37,767 bases of DNA, from the NCBI GenBank assembly GCA_018061585.1, contig JAGOTU010000001.1:1-37767 (forward strand). Direction: 5' to 3'. Below the pieces are notes generated by a model. It did not search any database. It was given only the letters and a program-made list of their open reading frames with translations, and had not been told where the DNA came from. The translations under genes and the position numbers were made by a program. This DNA is from Minisyncoccota bacterium (GTDB taxonomy: Bacteria > Patescibacteriota > Minisyncoccia > Phycocordibacterales > UBA2100). This document shows, one piece after another, positions 20,466 to 35,951 of this stretch. Position 1 is the first letter of the stretch; each line of letters starts with the position of its first letter.

Positions 20466-20520
20466 AAGCAAAAGCATTGGAGACTGCAAAAGCAGTCTCT
20501 TTTGCTTTGACCCTACGGAG
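20453..20520 (+). repeat. 22-bp perfect inverted repeat that includes the last 13 nt of tRNA-Glu, with a nested hairpin
   Basis: CTCCGTAGGGTCAAAGCAAAAG (20453-20474) is the exact reverse complement of 20499-20520. An inner hairpin GAGACTGC-AAAA-GCAGTCTC lies at 20480-20499. Confidence 0.85.
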
Positions 20521-20529
20521 GAAGGGGTC

Positions 20530-20583
20530 GGGAAACCTGTCTGGTTTCCCGTGGAGGAAGGTTGGGAAAACCGTGGGTTTCCC
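20530..20583 (+). repeat. Two tandem GGAGGAAGG + hairpin units (double-hairpin repeat, copy A)
   Basis: The hairpins are GGGAAACC-TGTCT-GGTTTCCC (20530-20550) and GGGAAAACC-GT-GGGTTTCCC (20564-20583). They are related to 26119-26186. Confidence 0.6.
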
Positions 20584-20599
20584 AGGCCGTAAGGGTCAA
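20581..20599 (+). repeat. Direct near-copy 1 of the tRNA-Glu 3' end
   Basis: CCCAGGCCGTAAGGGTCAA compares with the tRNA 3' end CCGTAGGGTCAA (20455-20466). Confidence 0.6.
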
Positions 20600-20674
20600 C
20601 CAAATATTTCCGAACGGCGGCGAGGAAATTATTGTGGCTCACATAAAAACGCAGTGTCAGCTTCCATAGAGTGT

Positions 20675-20693
20675 CCCAGTCCGTAAGGGTCAA
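20675..20693 (+). repeat. Direct near-copy 2 of the tRNA-Glu 3' end
   Basis: CCCAGTCCGTAAGGGTCAA matches copy 1 at 18 of 19 positions. Confidence 0.6.
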
Positions 20694-20789
20694 AGATAAT
20701 ATTCGACGACCGCGAAATAGTATGCGTCGCCGAATCGAATGCGTTGATATACATGATGAGTCAGTGAGGAGTTCGCGGCCGGCGTGACG

Positions 20790-20829
20790 CAAACAAACAG
20801 CCCCGAGCATTGCTCGGGGCCTTGTTTCG
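20790..20829. terminator. Bidirectional terminator (serves 20843..21091)
   Basis: The hairpin GCCCCGAGC-ATTG-CTCGGGGC spans 20800-20820. It has T-rich tracts on both strands. Confidence 0.75.
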
Positions 20830-30893: not shown

Positions 30894-31002
30894 AGCGAAA
30901 TGGTAACAGATGTATCTCTCCACAGAAATAGCCGGGTACAGGCGTTTGTATGTCCGGAAAATAAAGTCAGCCAACACTTCGTGTTGTCCTCGTTATTTTT
31001 TG

Positions 31003-31073
31003 TGGACCTACGGGGAGTCGAACCCCGACCTGTTCCATGCCATGGAACCGTTCTACCGCTATACTATAGGCCC
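31003..31073 (-). tRNA. tRNA-Ala (anticodon GGC)
   Basis: Hand-folded: acceptor GGGCCTA/TAGGTCC with the G3:U70 identity pair, anticodon loop ATGGCAT, and T-arm CGGGG-TTCGACT-CCCCG. The D-stem has a mismatch. No CCA is encoded. Confidence 0.75.
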
Positions 31074-31196
31074 GTTCGCTCTGCATCCTATCAAATACAC
31101 GGGTCGATTCAAAAGCTGTGCGCACAACCCTTAATTGACGTCATCATTCATGACGTCTACACTCGAACGACTACTCGAATAGATGTATATATTTTC

Positions 31197-33356
31197 ATGC
31201 AACGAAACAGTTACCGGATCGTGACCGCTGTACTTGTGACGTCTGTCATTACCACTCTAGTGTGGCTCATTCTACCGGCAACGCCTGCCGCTGCGCTCGG
31301 TGAGAACAATAGTGAACTGGATATTACATTTATTAGCCAGGGGTATTCGGATTTCGGCATCTTTCATTCGGATGTGCAGCGCTTTACCGAACATCTGCTC
31401 GCGATCGAACCTTTCAAAAGCCGAACTTCCCAGATCACGGTGCGTTCCGTCGACAATACGATAGACCTCATCTGCGGCACTGCGGGTTCCGTACCGGAAT
31501 GTAATCAGGCCAATGCGATCGCGGCGGTCGAGGCGAGTGGCACACCCTACGACAAGATAGTCGTACTGTGGAACAGTCCGCAGAATTCGGGAGGACGTGC
31601 GAAAACAACAGTCGCAACCGTGTATAACGGCGCCGACGGACACAAGACCTTTGTCCACGAGTTCGGTCACCTGCTCGGCCAAATGCGCGATGAATACACT
31701 GCCATACAGGGATCAGGTGCCATGTCCGGCTCATATGAAGGCAACTGCTATATGGGTTTGCCGCCAGCCTCCGCATGGCAGAGCGTGGCGTTGCGTGACT
31801 ACGGTATGGGGTGCATCTTCGCCAACTGGGCGCGGCCCTCGAAGAACAGTATTATGTTCAACCCGTACACCTCGACGTACTTTGACGTTGTGTCTCAGAG
31901 CATGCTCAATCAACAGTTCGACCTCTATGCGGGACCGTACTCTGACACGATTGCGCCGTCCGTAACTATTGTCGACCCTGTCGCGTCGTCGACAGTCTCC
32001 GGAAGAGTCACTATCACGTCGGCGATCTCAGATAACTCTGGCATCGTACGGGCGGAGCTTTGGAAAGACGGCGTTCACTACACGACCGGATACGATGCGC
32101 CCTTCAGCTTTACGTGGGACCCTGCGCTCAATGACCATTCGTCACATACTTTCCAAGTTCGTGCGTACGACGTTGCGGGCAATAGCGGGATCTCGGAGAC
32201 TGTCACAGTGAACATAGACGGCGGTGTGGCCGATACCGAAAAACCGATGGTGTACATGGTATCCCCCGGCAATGGTGCAGTGGTCTACGGCACGAGCAGC
32301 ATACAGCTCTACGTGACCGACAATTCAGAATCCTTGGGGACAGCGTACTTCTATGTCGATGGATCTCTGGTCGGCACCGATACCACCGCACCGTTTACCT
32401 TTAGCTGGGCGACGACGAATTACGCACAAGGATCGCACATGCTGCACGCATTCGCATATGATCTGGCCGGCAACTATGGGGTCACATCTCCCGTGACAGT
32501 GACAGTGGATAATGTCGCTCCGACTATCACGCTCACAAACCCGGTGAACGGCGCCGTGCTTTCGGGAACTACCACAATGCAGGCCGTCGCGTCAGACGAT
32601 CCCGGTCCGCTCTCGCGAGTTGAATTCGTACTCGATGGAAATGGTGTCGCCATCGATACGATCGCCCCGTATGAATTCCAATGGGATACCAAGACAGTGC
32701 TGAACGGTCAACATACGCTGTTCGCGCGAGCGTACGATGCTGCGCGATACACCGACACCGCTCTCGTGACCGTGACCGTACAGAACAATCCGCCTGATAC
32801 AACGAATCCAACGGTCTCGATCTCGTCCCCGACGCAAGGCGCAACGATCCAGGGCACATCGACCGTGACAGTCGCCGCGAGCGACAATATAGCCGTCACC
32901 AAGGTAGAGCTCTATCGAGACGGCGTACTGAGCGATACGGATCTCTCGTCGCCGTTCAGTTTCTTGTGGGATACAAAAACTGTGATGAACGGCGTTCATT
33001 CACTTGTCGCCAAGGCGTTCGACGCTGCCGGCAATACTGCTTCGAGCACCTCTCGCTCGGTAACGGTAAGTAATCCCGACACCACCCCGCCCTCCGTTAC
33101 CATAAGCGCGCCCCTGAACGGCGCGACCGTGCCGAGGCGCACGAATGTGACGATCCAAGCGACAGCGTCGGACAACGTCGCCATACAAAAAGTGCAGTTC
33201 TACGTCGGAACGACGCTCAAATGCACCGACACGACGCTACCGTATTCATGCGTGTGGAAAACGCCGTCGACCCAAGGCGCGCAAACGCTCAAGGCTACTG
33301 CAACTGATACATCCAACAATACAAAAACGACGCAGATCTCTGTGAACGTCAATTAG
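31197..33356 (+). CDS. Secreted M64-like zinc metallopeptidase fused to five tandem Ig-like domains
   Basis: A signal or anchor is present (IVTAVLVTSVITTLVWLILPATPAAA). The HEFGHLLGQMRDEY motif (HEFGH at 31656-31670) resembles peptidase M64. From about nt 31950 there are five ~93-aa repeats (PxVxIxxPxxGAxVxG...APFxFxWDT...GxHxLxAxAxDxAGN). The ORF-track N-terminus (30900-31196) just reads through the tRNA. Confidence 0.7.
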   Translation: MQRNSYRIVTAVLVTSVITTLVWLILPATPAAALGENNSELDITFISQGYSDFGIFHSDVQRFTEHLLAIEPFKSRTSQITVRSVDNTIDLICGTAGSVPECNQANAIAAVEASGTPYDKIVVLWNSPQNSGGRAKTTVATVYNGADGHKTFVHEFGHLLGQMRDEYTAIQGSGAMSGSYEGNCYMGLPPASAWQSVALRDYGMGCIFANWARPSKNSIMFNPYTSTYFDVVSQSMLNQQFDLYAGPYSDTIAPSVTIVDPVASSTVSGRVTITSAISDNSGIVRAELWKDGVHYTTGYDAPFSFTWDPALNDHSSHTFQVRAYDVAGNSGISETVTVNIDGGVADTEKPMVYMVSPGNGAVVYGTSSIQLYVTDNSESLGTAYFYVDGSLVGTDTTAPFTFSWATTNYAQGSHMLHAFAYDLAGNYGVTSPVTVTVDNVAPTITLTNPVNGAVLSGTTTMQAVASDDPGPLSRVEFVLDGNGVAIDTIAPYEFQWDTKTVLNGQHTLFARAYDAARYTDTALVTVTVQNNPPDTTNPTVSISSPTQGATIQGTSTVTVAASDNIAVTKVELYRDGVLSDTDLSSPFSFLWDTKTVMNGVHSLVAKAFDAAGNTASSTSRSVTVSNPDTTPPSVTISAPLNGATVPRRTNVTIQATASDNVAIQKVQFYVGTTLKCTDTTLPYSCVWKTPSTQGAQTLKATATDTSNNTKTTQISVNVN

Positions 33357-33366
33357 CGTAGGGCGA

Positions 33367-33870
33367 TCAGATCGCCTGCGGATCCTCTATGGTCGGTGGC
33401 GTTGCCAAGCACTGACTTAGTCTGTCGGACTGGGTCCATCCGCACTTGCCGTCGGCCTGAACCTCACACGACGCTTCCCGGTAGCATGCATACTCGGGTC
33501 GGAATTCACATGTGGATACCCCGCCGCCTGCGGCAGCCTCTTCTGCAGATATGCAGAGCTGCATAGAGCATCCGGAGATCGCGCAACCATTCGCCACAAT
33601 ACCTGTTTGCGGAGGCGGCATCTGAACCGACTGTGTGTCATTGGAAAATGTGCGGCCATCAGGTGTCGCACACTGCTCGGGATACGACTCCATGATCGGA
33701 TACCCCGCCTCTTTGCATTCCTGGAAGGTGGCTATGGCGTACATCCTTTGTTGGCTCGCGATGTTCGAAAGTGACAGCAGAAGCCCTGCTATAAGAGCGA
33801 GCACGACCGCAACGCCGATAAGAGTCGCTATGCTTGACTGTTTTTTAGTGGCTTCGTTTTCCATGCTCAT
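33367..33870 (-). CDS. Membrane-anchored protein with C-terminal eight-cysteine domain
   Basis: It has a transmembrane segment (IATLIGVAVVLALIAGLLLSL). A Cys pair occurs in FQECKEAGYPIMESYPEQC. Eight further Cys lie in GCAISGCSMQLC...STCEF..YACY..ASCE..GKCGW...SQC. The start could be the second ATG (33864). Confidence 0.6.
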   Translation of the reverse strand: MSMENEATKKQSSIATLIGVAVVLALIAGLLLSLSNIASQQRMYAIATFQECKEAGYPIMESYPEQCATPDGRTFSNDTQSVQMPPPQTGIVANGCAISGCSMQLCISAEEAAAGGGVSTCEFRPEYACYREASCEVQADGKCGWTQSDRLSQCLATPPTIEDPQAI

Positions 33871-33909
33871 ATTGTATCAAACGCATACAGTGACATGTAC
33901 TTACATCTA

Positions 33910-34065
33910 TCGGGCCGCCGGGGAGCGGCGTGACTCACTAAACTCGCAAGCTCGTTAAGTGGTCACTGCCCTGGCTCGCGGTCGCTGCGCGACATCGCTC
34001 CGCCTTTCGATCCCCGACGCATAGCACGCAGGTGCTATGCTTCGACGTCATTCACTTCGTTCATG
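33910..34065 (-). other. tRNA-Pro(GGG) trailer module: inverted T-arm copy + direct copy of the tRNA 3' end
   Basis: TCGGGCCGCCGGGGA (33910-33924) is identical to 34066-34080, the last 15 nt of the tRNA. The 16-mer CGGCGTGACTCACTAA lies at 33926-33941. An inverted T-loop/T-stem TTCGATCCCCG lies at 34006-34016. There is no ORF. Confidence 0.6.
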
Positions 34066-34136
34066 TCGGGCCGCCGGGGATCGAACCCGGTCTACATGAC
34101 CCCCAGCCATGCGTACTACCGGTATACTACGGCCCG
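34066..34136 (-). tRNA. tRNA-Pro (anticodon GGG)
   Basis: Hand-folded: acceptor CGGGCCG/CGGCCCG, D-stem GTAT/GTAC, anticodon stem CATGG/TCATG with loop CTGGGGG, and T-arm CCGGG-TTCGATC-CCCGG. No CCA is encoded. Confidence 0.8.
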
Positions 34137-34221
34137 TAGTGAGCAGTAATATTAAAGCTTGCTTCAATATTATGCGAATGCCCGGGCCGCACGAATGTTG
34201 GGCCCGTTTGGCGACAAGATA

Positions 34222-34234
34222 TTTTGTCGGGCTG
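34222..34234 (-). repeat. Direct copy of the 3' acceptor strand + trailer of tRNA-Pro(CGG)
   Basis: TTTTGTCGGGCTG (34222-34234) is identical to 34298-34310. It lies 76 nt downstream of the tRNA end, in the Pro-Pro spacer. Confidence 0.5.
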
Positions 34235-34302
34235 ATTGGGTGAGGAGCGAGTTTGCGTAGCTCCGCAAGACCCGTCTACACGCTTGCAATGAAATCTTTT
34301 TG

Positions 34303-34373
34303 TCGGGCTGCTGGGAATCGAACCCAGTCTACACGCACCCGAAGCGTGCGTACTACCGGTATACTACAGCCCG
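34303..34373 (-). tRNA. tRNA-Pro (anticodon CGG)
   Basis: Hand-folded: acceptor CGGGCTG/CAGCCCG, anticodon stem CACGC/GCGTG with loop TTCGGGT, and T-arm CTGGG-TTCGATT-CCCAG. Confidence 0.8.
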
Positions 34374-34473
34374 GCAAAAAGACTCCATGCAATGCTTTGC
34401 CGACTTGCCCGGCAAAAAACCTCATCGCTCGAGTATCCTAACAAAGAAAATAACGGTTGAAAAATAACGAGTG

Positions 34474-34547
34474 TGCACCATTCAGGATTCGAACCTGAGA
34501 CCTTTCGAATGTGAATCGAACGCTCTAACCAACTGAGCTAATGGTGC
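34474..34547 (-). tRNA. tRNA-Val (anticodon CAC)
   Basis: Hand-folded: acceptor GCACCAT/ATGGTGC, D-arm GCTC-AGTTGGTTA-GAGC, anticodon loop TTCACAT, and T-arm TCAGG-TTCGAAT-CCTGA. Confidence 0.85.
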
Positions 34548-34642
34548 GTTCGGAGAATAATACTGTATGCGTCCCCCAGCGCAAAAGTCAGCGTTTCGCT
34601 TGACCTTGACTTTATACTGATAGTGTGGCTATATAGCGTTCT

Positions 34643-35125
34643 ATGGTAATCGTACCCACCTGGATGCGCGTTGCGCTGGCCTCGGGCATTTGCTTTGCCG
34701 CAGGTGCTATTTCTGCGCTATATATGACACCCCAGTCTCTCGGCTGGTTCGACTCTTTGGATCGCCCGGTCTTCTTTGCGATGCCGCTACCGGTCATCTT
34801 TTTCGTCCTTGTAGTTTCCTACGCACTCATGTCATTGGCATCGAGTCTTATGTGGATACATGATCCGAAACCGTGGGACTTCCGCGGGTGGATGCCTCTC
34901 TTTTTTACGCACCTATTAATGCAGATGGGGTGGCTCATCCTATTGTTCGCCTACAATGTCGTATTCTTGTCGATGCTCATCGCATTTGTGCTTGCCACAT
35001 ACGTATTCATCCTTACTGCCGCGGCCTGGCAGCGACACAAGATCGCCTTCTGGCTTTTGCTCGCATACCTAGCCTGGACGCTGTACGCGCTCGGCATGAA
35101 TATCGCGATCTGGACGTTGAACTAA
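34643..35125 (+). CDS. tspO: TspO/MBR-family (tryptophan-rich sensory protein-like) membrane protein
   Basis: The 160-aa product has 5 hydrophobic spans. The motif WFDSLDRPVFF...YALMSLA resembles the TspO pattern WY..L.KP.w.PP...Y..M..A. Confidence 0.55.
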   Translation: MVIVPTWMRVALASGICFAAGAISALYMTPQSLGWFDSLDRPVFFAMPLPVIFFVLVVSYALMSLASSLMWIHDPKPWDFRGWMPLFFTHLLMQMGWLILLFAYNVVFLSMLIAFVLATYVFILTAAAWQRHKIAFWLLLAYLAWTLYALGMNIAIWTLN

Positions 35126-35131
35126 ACTACA

Positions 35132-35338
35132 TGTGGACCTGGGGGGAATCGGCGTGACTCACTAAGCGGCGAAAGGAATCGGTCAAGCGCTCGGTTTTGC
35201 GTCGTCACGCAATACCTCCGCCTGACCACGCTCGGGCATCCCCATCTACTGATGGGTCCCCAGCCCTCGCCTTCGATTCCCCCAAACCCCTACAAAAATA
35301 TAGTCGCCCACCGCTTCGCGATGTCCTCGTTATTTTTG
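35132..35338 (-). other. tRNA-Ala(CGC) trailer module: inverted T-arm copy + direct copy of the tRNA 3' end
   Basis: TGTGGACCTGGGGGGAATCG (35132-35151) is identical to 35337-35356. The 16-mer CGGCGTGACTCACTAA lies at 35150-35165. An inverted T-loop/T-stem TTCGATTCCCCC lies at 35272-35283. There is no credible ORF. Confidence 0.6.
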
Positions 35339-35409
35339 TGGACCTGGGGGGAATCGAACCCCCGCCTCCGCAATGCGAATGCGGTGTAATACCACTTTAC
35401 TACAGGCCC
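35339..35409 (-). tRNA. tRNA-Ala (anticodon CGC)
   Basis: Hand-folded: acceptor GGGCCTG/CAGGTCC with G3:U70, D-arm GTAA-AGTGGTA-TTAC, anticodon stem CCGCA/TGCGG with loop TTCGCAT, and T-arm GGGGG-TTCGATT-CCCCC. Confidence 0.85.
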
Positions 35410-35436
35410 TTGGTGGAAAATTTTATACCACCAATG

Positions 35437-35469
35437 CTAAAAAGAAAACTCCGCTTTCGCGGAGTTTTC
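35437..35469 (-). terminator. Intrinsic terminator of greA
   Basis: On the minus strand, the hairpin GAAAACTCCGC-TTTC-GCGGAGTTTTC is followed by TTTTTAG. Confidence 0.8.
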
Positions 35470-35483
35470 TTTCACTTGATCAG

Positions 35484-35951
35484 CTATTTTATATTGACGA
35501 TCTTGTACTTCTGCTGGCCTTTGGGGGTCTCAAAAGTGAATGTGTCCCCTTTCTTCTTTTCCATAAGCGCGCTTCCGAGCGGTGAGAGGTGCGAGATCTT
35601 TCGCTCCTGCATATTTGCTTCCGCCGAACCCACGATCTCGTAGGTATGCTCGTCCTTTTCGCCCTGTTTCTGGATGGTGACGAAGTTACCGAGAGAAACC
35701 GTGTTGCCTTTGGTGTGCTCGATGATGCGTGCGTGCGATAGCTGTTCCTCGATCACGCGAATGCGATCTTCGGTCGCAGCCTGCAGATTGCGGGCCTCCT
35801 CGTATTCGGCGTTCTCAGAAAGATCGCCAAGCGAACGGGCGTATTCCAACTGCTCCGCGATCTCGCGGCGTCGGACGGTCTTAAGATGTTCCAGCTCAGT
35901 CGTCAGTTCGTCGAACTTCTCCTTGCTCAAATAGTTTGTTTCGTCTGCCAT
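35484..35951 (-). CDS. greA: Transcription elongation factor GreA
   Basis: It has an N-terminal coiled coil (LEHLKTVRRREIAEQLEYARSLGDLSENAEYEEA) and a C-terminal FKBP-like domain. I trimmed the start to the ATG at 35951 (155 aa). Confidence 0.9.
   Translation of the reverse strand: MADETNYLSKEKFDELTTELEHLKTVRRREIAEQLEYARSLGDLSENAEYEEARNLQAATEDRIRVIEEQLSHARIIEHTKGNTVSLGNFVTIQKQGEKDEHTYEIVGSAEANMQERKISHLSPLGSALMEKKKGDTFTFETPKGQQKYKIVNIK

Follow-up and report, generated by a model that had tools for sequence, protein, structure and literature searches.

Small Folded Modules Directly Downstream of tRNA Genes in Patescibacteria, with Arms That Match the Host tRNA

Introduction

In mobile elements that integrate into tRNA genes, the identity block of the attachment sites extends from the T-loop to the end of the tRNA. 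For the CTX phage, which is integrated at dif by XerCD, the established product has the order X-cargo-X'-loop-X, where X is the target-like sequence and X' is its inverted copy. The same product is established, in principle, for integron cassettes. A unit of 156 nucleotides (nt) with this order is present directly downstream of the tRNA-Pro(GGG) gene of a Minisyncoccota bacterium (Patescibacteriota, Phycocordibacterales, UBA2100; assembly GCA_018061585.1). The gene lies on the minus strand of a stretch of 37,767 nt, positions 1 to 37,767 of contig JAGOTU010000001.1, which is hereafter called the window. The unit, the Pro module, belongs to a family of small, tightly folded modules that encode no protein and have apparently not been described. 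Among the sequences examined, this family is found only directly 3' of tRNA genes in bacteria of the candidate phyla radiation. On the tRNA strand, the order of a unit is the tRNA with its 3' end (X), a trailer (h1), the inverted copy X', a junction, a hairpin (P2), a short motif, a second hairpin (P3), and a second X.

The modules are similar to CTX phages and IMEXs, which use XerCD, in several points. Inverted target-like copies in the folded strand form a mimic of a duplex, the order of the product is the same, tandem and mixed arrays are seen at one site, and the enzyme is not carried by the element. They differ in that the target of CTX and IMEX is dif, whereas the modules target the T-loop and 3' end of tRNA genes. 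The modules are also only ~110–200 nt in length, gene-free, and provided with a three-way-junction loop, and their arms are rewritten for at least 24 targets. The attC sites of integrons are imperfect palindromes read as folded single strands, in which structure prevails over sequence and the centre is variable, and they form site-punctuated arrays with strand asymmetry. The resemblance to attC is one of possible working, not of membership: the alignments of the modules (A2 and A4) contain no R or L boxes (RYYYAAC/GTTRRRY), there is no IntI gene and no attI, the arms are the sequence of the neighbouring tRNA, and the cargo is only a short trailer.

Like the modules, integrative elements targeting tRNA genes bring a new 3' end for the tRNA, have an identity block that begins in the T-loop and reaches the tRNA end, and leave the displaced end as a direct repeat. 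A direct repeat of the tRNA 3' end bounds the element in the Pro module and in 20 modules of the family. Unlike tyrosine-integrase elements, the modules have no integrase and no kilobase cargo, and the 156-nt unit contains no open reading frame (ORF). They differ further in having an extra inverted copy and a structured core, and in that one core family is associated with many tRNA species. MITEs (miniature inverted-repeat transposable elements) and REPIN/BIME sequences are likewise small, non-coding, hairpin-forming, multicopy, intergenic, arranged in mosaic arrays, and presumably moved in trans. In contrast to these, the terminal inverted repeats of the modules are not constant but copy each target, and the modules are located only at tRNA 3' ends. 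Compared with MITEs, the duplication is 15–20 nt of tRNA sequence instead of a short fixed one, and no parent element is seen in the loci. Compared with REPINs, the structure is a three-way junction instead of a simple hairpin, and neither a parent insertion sequence nor a RAYT is known. The mitochondrial retroplasmids of Neurospora (Mauriceville and Varkud) have a tRNA-like 3' structure, pick up tRNA sequences, and integrate by homology at tRNA genes. They serve here as a lead only. They encode a reverse transcriptase and are kilobases long, whereas no reverse transcriptase or RNA intermediate is shown for the modules.

Searches of Rfam 15 at the gathering thresholds matched only tRNAs. At E ≤ 10, the core was unmatched in positions 33,850–35,450, where the weak matches overlapped tRNAs or tRNA-like arms only. 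Scans of IMG/VR with a 16-mer of the core, a type A core pattern, and a type B motif gave two chance matches and then none. No match to the module was obtained with blastn in GenBank phages or PLSDB plasmids, and literature searches returned no description of such modules. As the modules fail the defining features of each family compared above and have no Rfam match, the family appears to be categorically new, with a mechanism that we infer below.

Distribution of the Family

The Pro module shares the 16-mer CGGCGTGACTCACTAA with the module of tRNA-Ala(CGC), at positions 33,926–33,941 and 35,150–35,165 of the window, as had been noticed in the original prediction. This pair is only weakly significant by itself: with up to three mismatches allowed, 3 of 100 shuffled sequences also showed two matches. 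The exact 16-mer was scanned for in one genome per GTDB species, and 29 matches were obtained. Thirteen of them contain the extended core GAGCCAGGGCAGTGACCACTTA...TTAGTGAGTCACGCCG, and all 13 are in metagenome-assembled genomes (MAGs) of Patescibacteria. The 16 matches without the extended core are chance matches. It had been predicted that genome-wide copies of the 16-mer core would be associated with tRNA genes, and a same-strand tRNA gene is indeed present within ~300 nt upstream of 10 of the 13 extended-core copies, the other three being too near a locus edge. A scan of metagenomes of the Joint Genome Institute (JGI) with a core motif independent of the 16-mer gave 23 loci. About 19 of these are true, and they contain the 16-mer or a one-base variant.

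Two covariance models (R1 and R2) were built from these copies, and their E-values are rough. In 257 kb of Patescibacteria DNA, they detected 55 copies. Of these, 51 could be tested, and all have a same-strand tRNA gene upstream, typically 30–65 nt away, and the remaining four are within 108 nt of a locus edge. The host tRNAs of the model matches have 24 different anticodons and carry 13 different amino acids (Ala, Arg, Val, Glu, Gly, Ser, Trp, Tyr, Leu, His, Thr, Phe, and Pro). At least one module is borne by 47 of the 72 tRNA genes in the sampled loci, an occupancy that is biased upward because the comparative sequence consists of short loci around pattern matches. These family-level facts exclude a chance origin of the Pro module, and the original statement that tRNA-specific ends on a shared core are hard to obtain by chance was well founded.

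The taxonomy labels of the MAGs are those of the submitters. Loci L008, L011, L028, L030, and L057 are labelled Candidatus Saccharibacteria, yet their gene order is the same as that of the window contig, which is labelled Pacebacteria. A protein of 167 amino acids in L057 is 78% identical to that of the window. Some of the submitted labels are probably wrong.

The Pro Module and Its Sibling

The tRNA-Pro(GGG) gene is located at 34,065–34,136 (minus strand) according to ARAGORN, and at 34,066–34,136 according to the Rfam tRNA model (52.4 bits). None of the six tRNA genes in the window has an encoded CCA (ARAGORN). The proximal copy of X corresponds to the last 15–17 nt of this tRNA (34,065–34,080). 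The 15-mer TCGGGCCGCCGGGGA, its last 15 nt (34,066–34,080), has an exact second copy at 33,910–33,924 (repeat family D6), just as originally described. By simple arithmetic, the exact recurrence of a 15-mer 156 nt away is expected ~7 × 10⁻⁵ times per window. All coordinates originally given for the Pro module proved to be correct. The following features of the Pro module and its sibling are all on the minus strand.

The trailer h1a (ATGAACGAAGTGAATGACGTCGAA; 34,041–34,064) contains a motif AACGA(A/G) that recurs in tRNA trailers of these genomes. It is the same in L058 at 22 of 24 positions, and its first 18 nt recur in L060. The hairpin Hx (CGAAGCATAGCAC-CTGC-GTGCTATGCGTCG; 34,015–34,044; inverted repeat I4) is directly 5' of the inverted arm. 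It shows compensatory changes in L058 and L060. Its CTGC loop is found in other copies too, and in the Pro module and several others such a hairpin lies just 5' of X' or within it. CTGC-tetraloop hairpins with covarying stems occur in trailers and beside inverted arms, at 34,015–34,044 of the window and in L008, L009, L046, L051, and L058.

The 5' arm X' (CGGGGATCGAA; 34,006–34,016) forms helix 1 of the consensus structure. On the forward strand it is TTCGATCCCCG, preceded by CGCCT, and the interpretation of this piece as an inverted copy of the T-loop and T-stem is confirmed by the inverted repeat I3 (14 nt, 93% complementary). X' is the exact reverse complement of T-loop positions 54–60 and four bases of the 3' strand of the T-stem.

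The type A core, a three-way junction (33,926–34,005; alignment A2 and RNAalifold), is scored at 112–120 bits by the covariance models. It contains the junction GAAAGGCGGAG, the variable hairpin P2 (~33,977–33,997), the segment CGAGCCAGGGCAGTGACCACTTA (33,956–33,978), the apex of P3 (33,942–33,955), and the terminal 16-mer TTAGTGAGTCACGCCG (33,926–33,941). The proposed pairing of GGCGTGAC (33,927–33,934) with GTCAC-T-GCC (33,962–33,970) is invariant in 12 of 12 family members. The core is followed by a junction nucleotide at 33,925, which corresponds to tRNA position 58 and varies among copies. The Pro module has C where the tRNA has A, and this A-to-C difference is seen also in L058. The 3' arm, distal X (TCCCCGGCGGCCCGA; 33,910–33,924), ends at the discriminator.

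The 160 nt downstream of tRNA-Pro(GGG), on the tRNA strand, is predicted to fold as RNA with −66.3 kcal/mol (z = −3.3), and the fold is closed by a stem in which the inverted copy is paired with the terminal direct copy. The z-score of the sense strand with DNA parameters is −3.6, and that of the antisense strand is −1.6.

The sibling module of tRNA-Ala(CGC) (35,128–35,337; host tRNA at 35,338–35,409) consists of the trailer h1 (35,284–35,337), X' (35,272–35,283; inverted pair I6), a type B core whose 3' end is the 16-mer at 35,150–35,165, and distal X (35,134–35,151; repeat family D5). Its scores are 29.6 and 35.7 bits with the two covariance models. Core subtypes A, B, C, and C' of the family have common junction motifs and a common three-way-junction plan. 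The Pro module belongs to subtype A, and the Ala(CGC) module to subtype B with the same terminal 16-mer. Thus the originally claimed match of the two architectures holds for the junction motifs, the terminal 16-mer, and the plan of the arms, but not for the core, which is of another subtype in the Ala module. The sequence called a spacer after the tRNA is present as well, but it belongs to the repeated unit and is not a mere spacer.

tRNA-Matched Arms

The trailer h1 is ~25–55 nt long, often with an A-tract, a hairpin, and a T-tract, and with a recurrent AACGAG motif. X spans from T-loop position 57–59 to the discriminator or one base further. X' is the Watson-Crick complement of X, including the complement of the T-loop. 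X' is followed by the junction GAA(A)G-N-CGGAG, the variable hairpin P2, the motif CGAG-N-C-R-GGG, the long hairpin P3, and the 3' arm.

The alanine X' sequences in L008, L030, L009, and L016 have A3-U70 in place of G3-U70, while L005 retains G3; of the four long-armed alanine copies, three have A3-U70. In L046 and L051, the pairing of X' extends to the discriminator and one base beyond. That X' contains the T-loop complement, and usually A3 instead of G3, indicates that it is an inverted copy of X, and the derivation of X' from the 5' strands of the tRNA itself was rejected for the same reasons. In several copies a hairpin is present between the acceptor and T-stem parts of X', giving a tRNA-like topology.

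Comparison of the arms with tRNAs was done for 20 distinct type A modules. The 3' arm is identical to its own tRNA at 9–16 of 16 positions, while the mean for non-cognate tRNAs is 7–9 and the maximum is 13. For the Pro module, these values are 15 of 16 positions and a mean of 8.5. The 5' arm follows its own tRNA likewise. The original prediction that a shared core carries ends swapped to match the neighbouring tRNA thus holds. Many copies have lost the outer acceptor portion of one arm, or it has decayed, and the other arm shows no compensating change. Within the arms, G-U pairs (19) and A-C pairs (18) are nearly equal in number.

The sequences following the proximal and distal X differ from each other in 11 of the 13 copies in which the end of distal X can be located. 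The h1 trailers of different tRNAs (Ala, Gly, and His) have AAAAATAACGAG...CGACTATATTTTT in common.

Structure of the Core

RNAalifold predicts a three-way junction, in which P1 is made of the arms, P2 is closed by GGC/GCC, and the lower stem of P3 (GGC-A-GTGAC/GTCAC-GCC) is invariant. Compensatory changes are found in 14 of 31 pairs in a MAFFT alignment of 12 sequences. In alignment A3, which contains 37 distinct sequences, 93% of the cells are paired against 73% in shuffled sequences, and none of 500 shuffles reaches the observed value. When the partners are slid by 1–3 columns, only 29–40% of the cells are paired. Both sides vary in 29 of the 31 pairs. The 37-sequence alignment was fitted to the model and leans towards the structure; the independent MAFFT alignment agrees with it. 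These patterns of substitution point to a conserved single-strand structure of the core. The core helices contain 18 G-U pairs and only 4 A-C pairs, and therefore the folding strand should be the tRNA-sense strand, as RNA or single-stranded DNA.

Arrays and Turnover

At tRNA-Trp, the whole unit (h1, X', core, and X) of 172 nt is repeated in tandem as identical copies in L036 and related metagenome contigs. The copy number differs between contigs (L036 versus L034 and L048). The tRNA-Trp array runs off the contig end at 1–400 of L036, and also in L034, L038, L044, L048, and L054. Such arrays probably cause assembly breaks in these MAGs. In compound arrays, differing subtypes are placed in series, each closing with X, and later units have their own terminator-like h1. 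Examples are L011, L028, L040, L053/L055, L047, L008, and the trailer of tRNA-Glu(CTC) in the window.

The tRNA-Glu(CTC) trailer (20,466–20,800, plus strand) is built as an array in which the 3' end of the tRNA recurs as punctuation. It starts with the 3' end CCGTAGGGTCA, a hairpin, and a perfect inverted copy at ~20,501–20,520. Next is a twin-hairpin element, designated type D (~20,522–20,585), which is 87–92% identical to copies in L016, L057, and L028. The distal part contains a copy of the 3' end at ~20,598, a remnant like the P3 hairpin of type C, and a third copy of the 3' end at ~20,681. This array was not detected by the covariance models.

Homologues of the neighbouring 167-amino-acid protein (75–78% identity) led to three syntenic relatives of the window, L057, L058, and L060. 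At the tRNA-Pro(GGG) site, the window and L058 bear a type A module, L057 bears a core in inverted orientation, and L005 and L008 have no module. In L060, h1, Hx, X', and X of this site are the same as in the window, and the core is different. The tRNA-Ala(CGC) site has type B in the window, type A in L012, type C in L057, and no module in L058 and L008. At tRNA-Ala(GGC), type A is present in L008 and L005, and only the h1 trailer is left in the window. The trailer of this gene (30,950–31,001, minus strand; AAAAAATAACGAGGACA...GACTTTATTTTCCGGAC) is nearly identical to h1 of the module-bearing Ala(GGC) genes of L008. It is without the inverted arm, the core, and the direct repeat, and looks like a site of hairpin loss. 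In another clade, tRNA-Ser(TGA) is occupied in L041 and empty in L049, and L047 has a bare footprint of X-9 nt-X.

The Pro(GGG) modules of the window and L058 are 93.6% identical over 156 nt, including the unpaired loops and the trailer. Hx and P2 differ at few positions, mostly in a compensatory way. In contrast, the third codon positions of GreA and TspO are only 45–47% identical between the two, synonymous sites are saturated, and the other tRNA spacers are wholly different in length and sequence. Either a constraint like that on tRNAs acts on nearly every base of the Pro module, or the copies are of much more recent date than the genomes. L009 resembles L016, and L008 resembles L005, in the tRNA and the module only. 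Between diverged genomes, the tRNA is 100% identical and the flanks are unalignable. P2 variants track the tRNA identity across genomes.

The block of tRNA-Val(CAC), tRNA-Pro(CGG), and tRNA-Pro(GGG) (34,065–34,547) is inverted relative to the flanking genes of TspO and the 167-amino-acid protein when the window is compared with L057, L058, and L060. The modules remain attached to their tRNAs despite this inversion.

Proposed Origin of the Modules

The architecture, the exclusive tRNA linkage, the host-matched arms, the single-strand structure, the arrays, and the turnover among relatives are observed. We favor the reading, at a probability of about 0.45, that the 156-nt unit is a copy of a small, non-coding, non-autonomous insertion element that homes, in Patescibacteria, to the T-loop and 3' end of tRNA genes. 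To this reading would belong an intermediate that is circular or single-stranded, a T-loop crossover, and an enzyme acting in trans, all of which we infer. The mobile unit would consist of X, which serves as a replacement tRNA 3' end, h1, X', and the three-way-junction core. A crossover within the T-loop/X segment would join X of the element to the tRNA body, leaving the tRNA intact. The transcript would be ended by h1, and the original 3' end would be displaced to the far side, which generates X-h1-X'-core-X. In the tRNA-sense single strand, the X':X stem would mimic a duplex target, with the core on top. The folded hairpin could be the recombination site, as is the case for attP(+)/dif of the CTX phage or attC of integrons, with the enzyme supplied in trans. 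The invariant lower stem of P3 and the junction, stacked on the arm helix, may be the surface recognized by the enzyme.

With such an element, the repeat would start in the T-loop and stop at the tRNA end because the crossover lies in the T-loop/X segment. Different sequences would follow proximal and distal X because the original X was displaced by X-h1 of the element. Trailers of different tRNAs would be alike because h1 is carried by the element, and arrays would be punctuated by X because insertion was repeated. A single-stranded intermediate is suggested by the sense-strand constraint and by the length of the unit, which is too short for a relaxed double-stranded circle. The order X-cargo-X'-loop-X could arise because a circular single strand integrates via a folded, target-mimicking hairpin.

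Several facts weigh against an insertion element. Pfam searches of 30 ORFs in the window revealed housekeeping functions only; no recombinase was among them, nor a transposase or a reverse transcriptase. When 602 ORFs from 33 module-bearing loci were clustered all against all, only syntenic housekeeping families recurred near modules. No free, circular, viral, or plasmid copy was found in IMG/VR, GenBank phages, and PLSDB. The module-less tRNA-Pro(GGG) of L005 retains the first 18 nt of h1 (16 of 18 identical), and the module-less tRNA-Ala(GGC) of the window has a full h1. The presence of h1 at such sites requires either a secondary deletion of the hairpin, which is plausible and for which it is relevant that long inverted repeats are deletion-prone, or a native h1 with insertion after it. 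The different core of L060, with h1, Hx, X', and X kept, means that the exchanged unit is not the whole proposed unit; the swap could be due to recombination between elements or to differential loss from a compound array. The tracking of tRNA identity by P2 variants is also compatible with vertical inheritance, and the high conservation could instead reflect a host function. The rewriting of X and X' for 24 tRNAs from one core is left unexplained. It is possible, and rather doubtful, that the modules constitute a new class of mobile elements, in which the target is written as base-paired arms (X':X) on a three-way-junction scaffold and re-addressed to at least 24 tRNA genes, and which, being gene-free, are moved as single-stranded DNA or RNA by an enzyme of the host or an unlinked one.

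A structured RNA that is useful to the host and transcribed with its tRNA or just after it is the main alternative, with an appreciable chance of being correct. The X':X helix might be an entry for RNase III or RNase P that frees the 3' trailer, the module might be a terminator or a protective cap, or it might be a sensor or decoy of the cognate acceptor/T-helix; spread to new tRNAs would then have been rare and historical. Such an RNA would fit the strong covariation of the three-way junction with its excess of G-U over A-C on the tRNA-sense strand, the fixed position and orientation relative to the tRNA, and the P2 variants that follow the tRNA type across genomes. The compensatory changes in Hx and P2 and the 93.6% identity to L058 despite saturated synonymous sites, as well as the modules on 47 of 72 sampled tRNA genes in small streamlined genomes, point in the same direction. 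The tRNA-like topology that a hairpin inside X' gives to several copies, and the finding of no mobility gene in the window or near modules, are also in its favor. It is difficult to reconcile with dispensable modules that turn over rapidly: where one close relative has a module, another has none, a different one, or an inverted one at that tRNA. There is no obvious RNA rationale for tandem or compound arrays with an extra X per unit, the outer arms decay uncompensated, and a helix needs no copy of the neighbouring tRNA. The discriminator-paired X' and the A3-U70 of alanine copies argue against a chargeable or classical tRNA mimic, and a simple scan of positions 33,700–35,600 revealed no promoter or terminator above the shuffled background. 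Homologous cores behind 24 tRNAs would still require a copying mechanism.

The spread of the unit might also be enzyme-free, by natural transformation and homologous recombination. The highly conserved tRNA gene would provide homology on the left and the terminal X a short right arm, which would make insertion precise with no need of a recombinase, and X' and the core would serve another purpose. DNA uptake is considered widespread in these bacteria, no associated recombinase is found in the window or near modules, and X ends exactly where the homology between donor and recipient would end. The 100% identical tRNAs between unalignable flanks, and the similarity of L009 to L016 and of L008 to L005 in the tRNA and module only, are also as expected from it. 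We nevertheless consider it improbable as the explanation, because a right arm of 15–17 nt is very short for RecA-type recombination, and the inverted arm, the structure of the core, and the transfer of the core to new tRNA species are not accounted for. It is far less probable still that the modules are ordinary scars, that is, attL/attR remnants of integrase-bearing prophages or islands that were almost wholly deleted. A tRNA 3' end repeated directly from the T-loop onward is what such integration classically leaves, and L047 Ser(TGA) bears a bare X...X footprint. Random deletion, however, would not produce the same covarying core of 80–130 nt, equally spaced and oriented, behind 24 tRNA species in many genomes. 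The inverted arm would be unexplained here too. No integrase fragment, phage gene, or match in phage collections was found, and none of ~60 loci contains a full-length element with an integrase between X and the core. These readings are not mutually exclusive. It can be speculated that the element persists since the loss of distal X alone would free X' to disturb the folding of the tRNA.

If the modules are mobile, they represent a very small site-specific insertion system, in which a scaffold of ~100 nt has a 10–18-bp stem as an address that is rewritten for two dozen tRNA genes. The finding of its enzyme could then give a new re-addressable integration tool. Mobile modules would also show how streamlined genomes of Patescibacteria tolerate selfish DNA, as the element repairs the tRNA that it interrupts. 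If the modules are host RNAs, they represent a widespread unannotated class of tRNA-linked non-coding RNAs, following about half of the tRNA genes in the sampled loci, with a bearing on tRNA maturation with reduced RNase sets in an understudied bacterial radiation. Either way, the family merits modelling and annotation, and it accounts for many sequences that look like partial duplications of tRNAs, as well as for some of the breaks in the assemblies of these MAGs.

Other Candidates Considered

Several known RNAs and processes were compared with the modules and rejected. The order of a conserved scaffold and a 15–17-nt target-identical segment is like that of the omega-RNAs of IS200/IS605 elements (TnpB/IscB). 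There is, however, no tnpB or iscB, no insertion-sequence end, and no match to HEARO or related Rfam families, and the 5' arm would mask the guide. In an IS110 bridge RNA, beside the recombinase gene, two internal loops are paired with adjoining halves of target and donor. In the module, both arms cover one target segment and pair mutually, and no recombinase is present in the window or recurs near modules. For a transfer-messenger RNA (tmRNA)-type or chargeable mimic, the pairing of X' with the discriminator and the next base (L046 and L051) and the A3-U70 in L008, L030, and L009/L016 are unfavorable. A T-box is excluded by the wrong position and the lack of an Rfam match. The GAAA of the junction is reminiscent of the hammerhead and other small ribozymes, but there is no CUGAUGA and no Rfam match. 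No motifs match a fragment of a group I or group II intron. Casposon-type target duplication is not accompanied by Cas1 and leaves the inverted arm unexplained. An origin of X from mature tRNA is contradicted by the tRNA-Trp units, which repeat 34 nt of the genomic trailer past X and thus indicate duplication at the DNA level.

Other Features of the Window

The window is an ordinary chromosomal stretch, with a dcw cluster and genes of GreA, TspO, GMP synthase, and histidine kinase. The 167-amino-acid protein (33,367–33,870, minus strand) has eight cysteines, a weak match to PF27854, and more than 300 homologues, apparently mostly in Patescibacteria. A protein of 818 amino acids (30,900–33,356, plus strand) contains five Big_7 Ig-like repeats and a partial match to M64 peptidase. 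Outside the syntenic relatives, the genes of these two proteins do not recur beside modules.

A different mini-module is present between tRNA-Pro(CGG) and tRNA-Pro(GGG) (34,221–34,290, minus strand). It consists of a direct copy of the variable loop and the 5' strand of the T-stem (GTGTAGACGGG), a hairpin of ~30 nt replacing the T-loop, and CCCAATCAGCCCGAC. The mini-module is conserved in L057 (3,463–3,508) with compensatory changes, GGAGC/GCTCC versus GGCGC/GCGCC.

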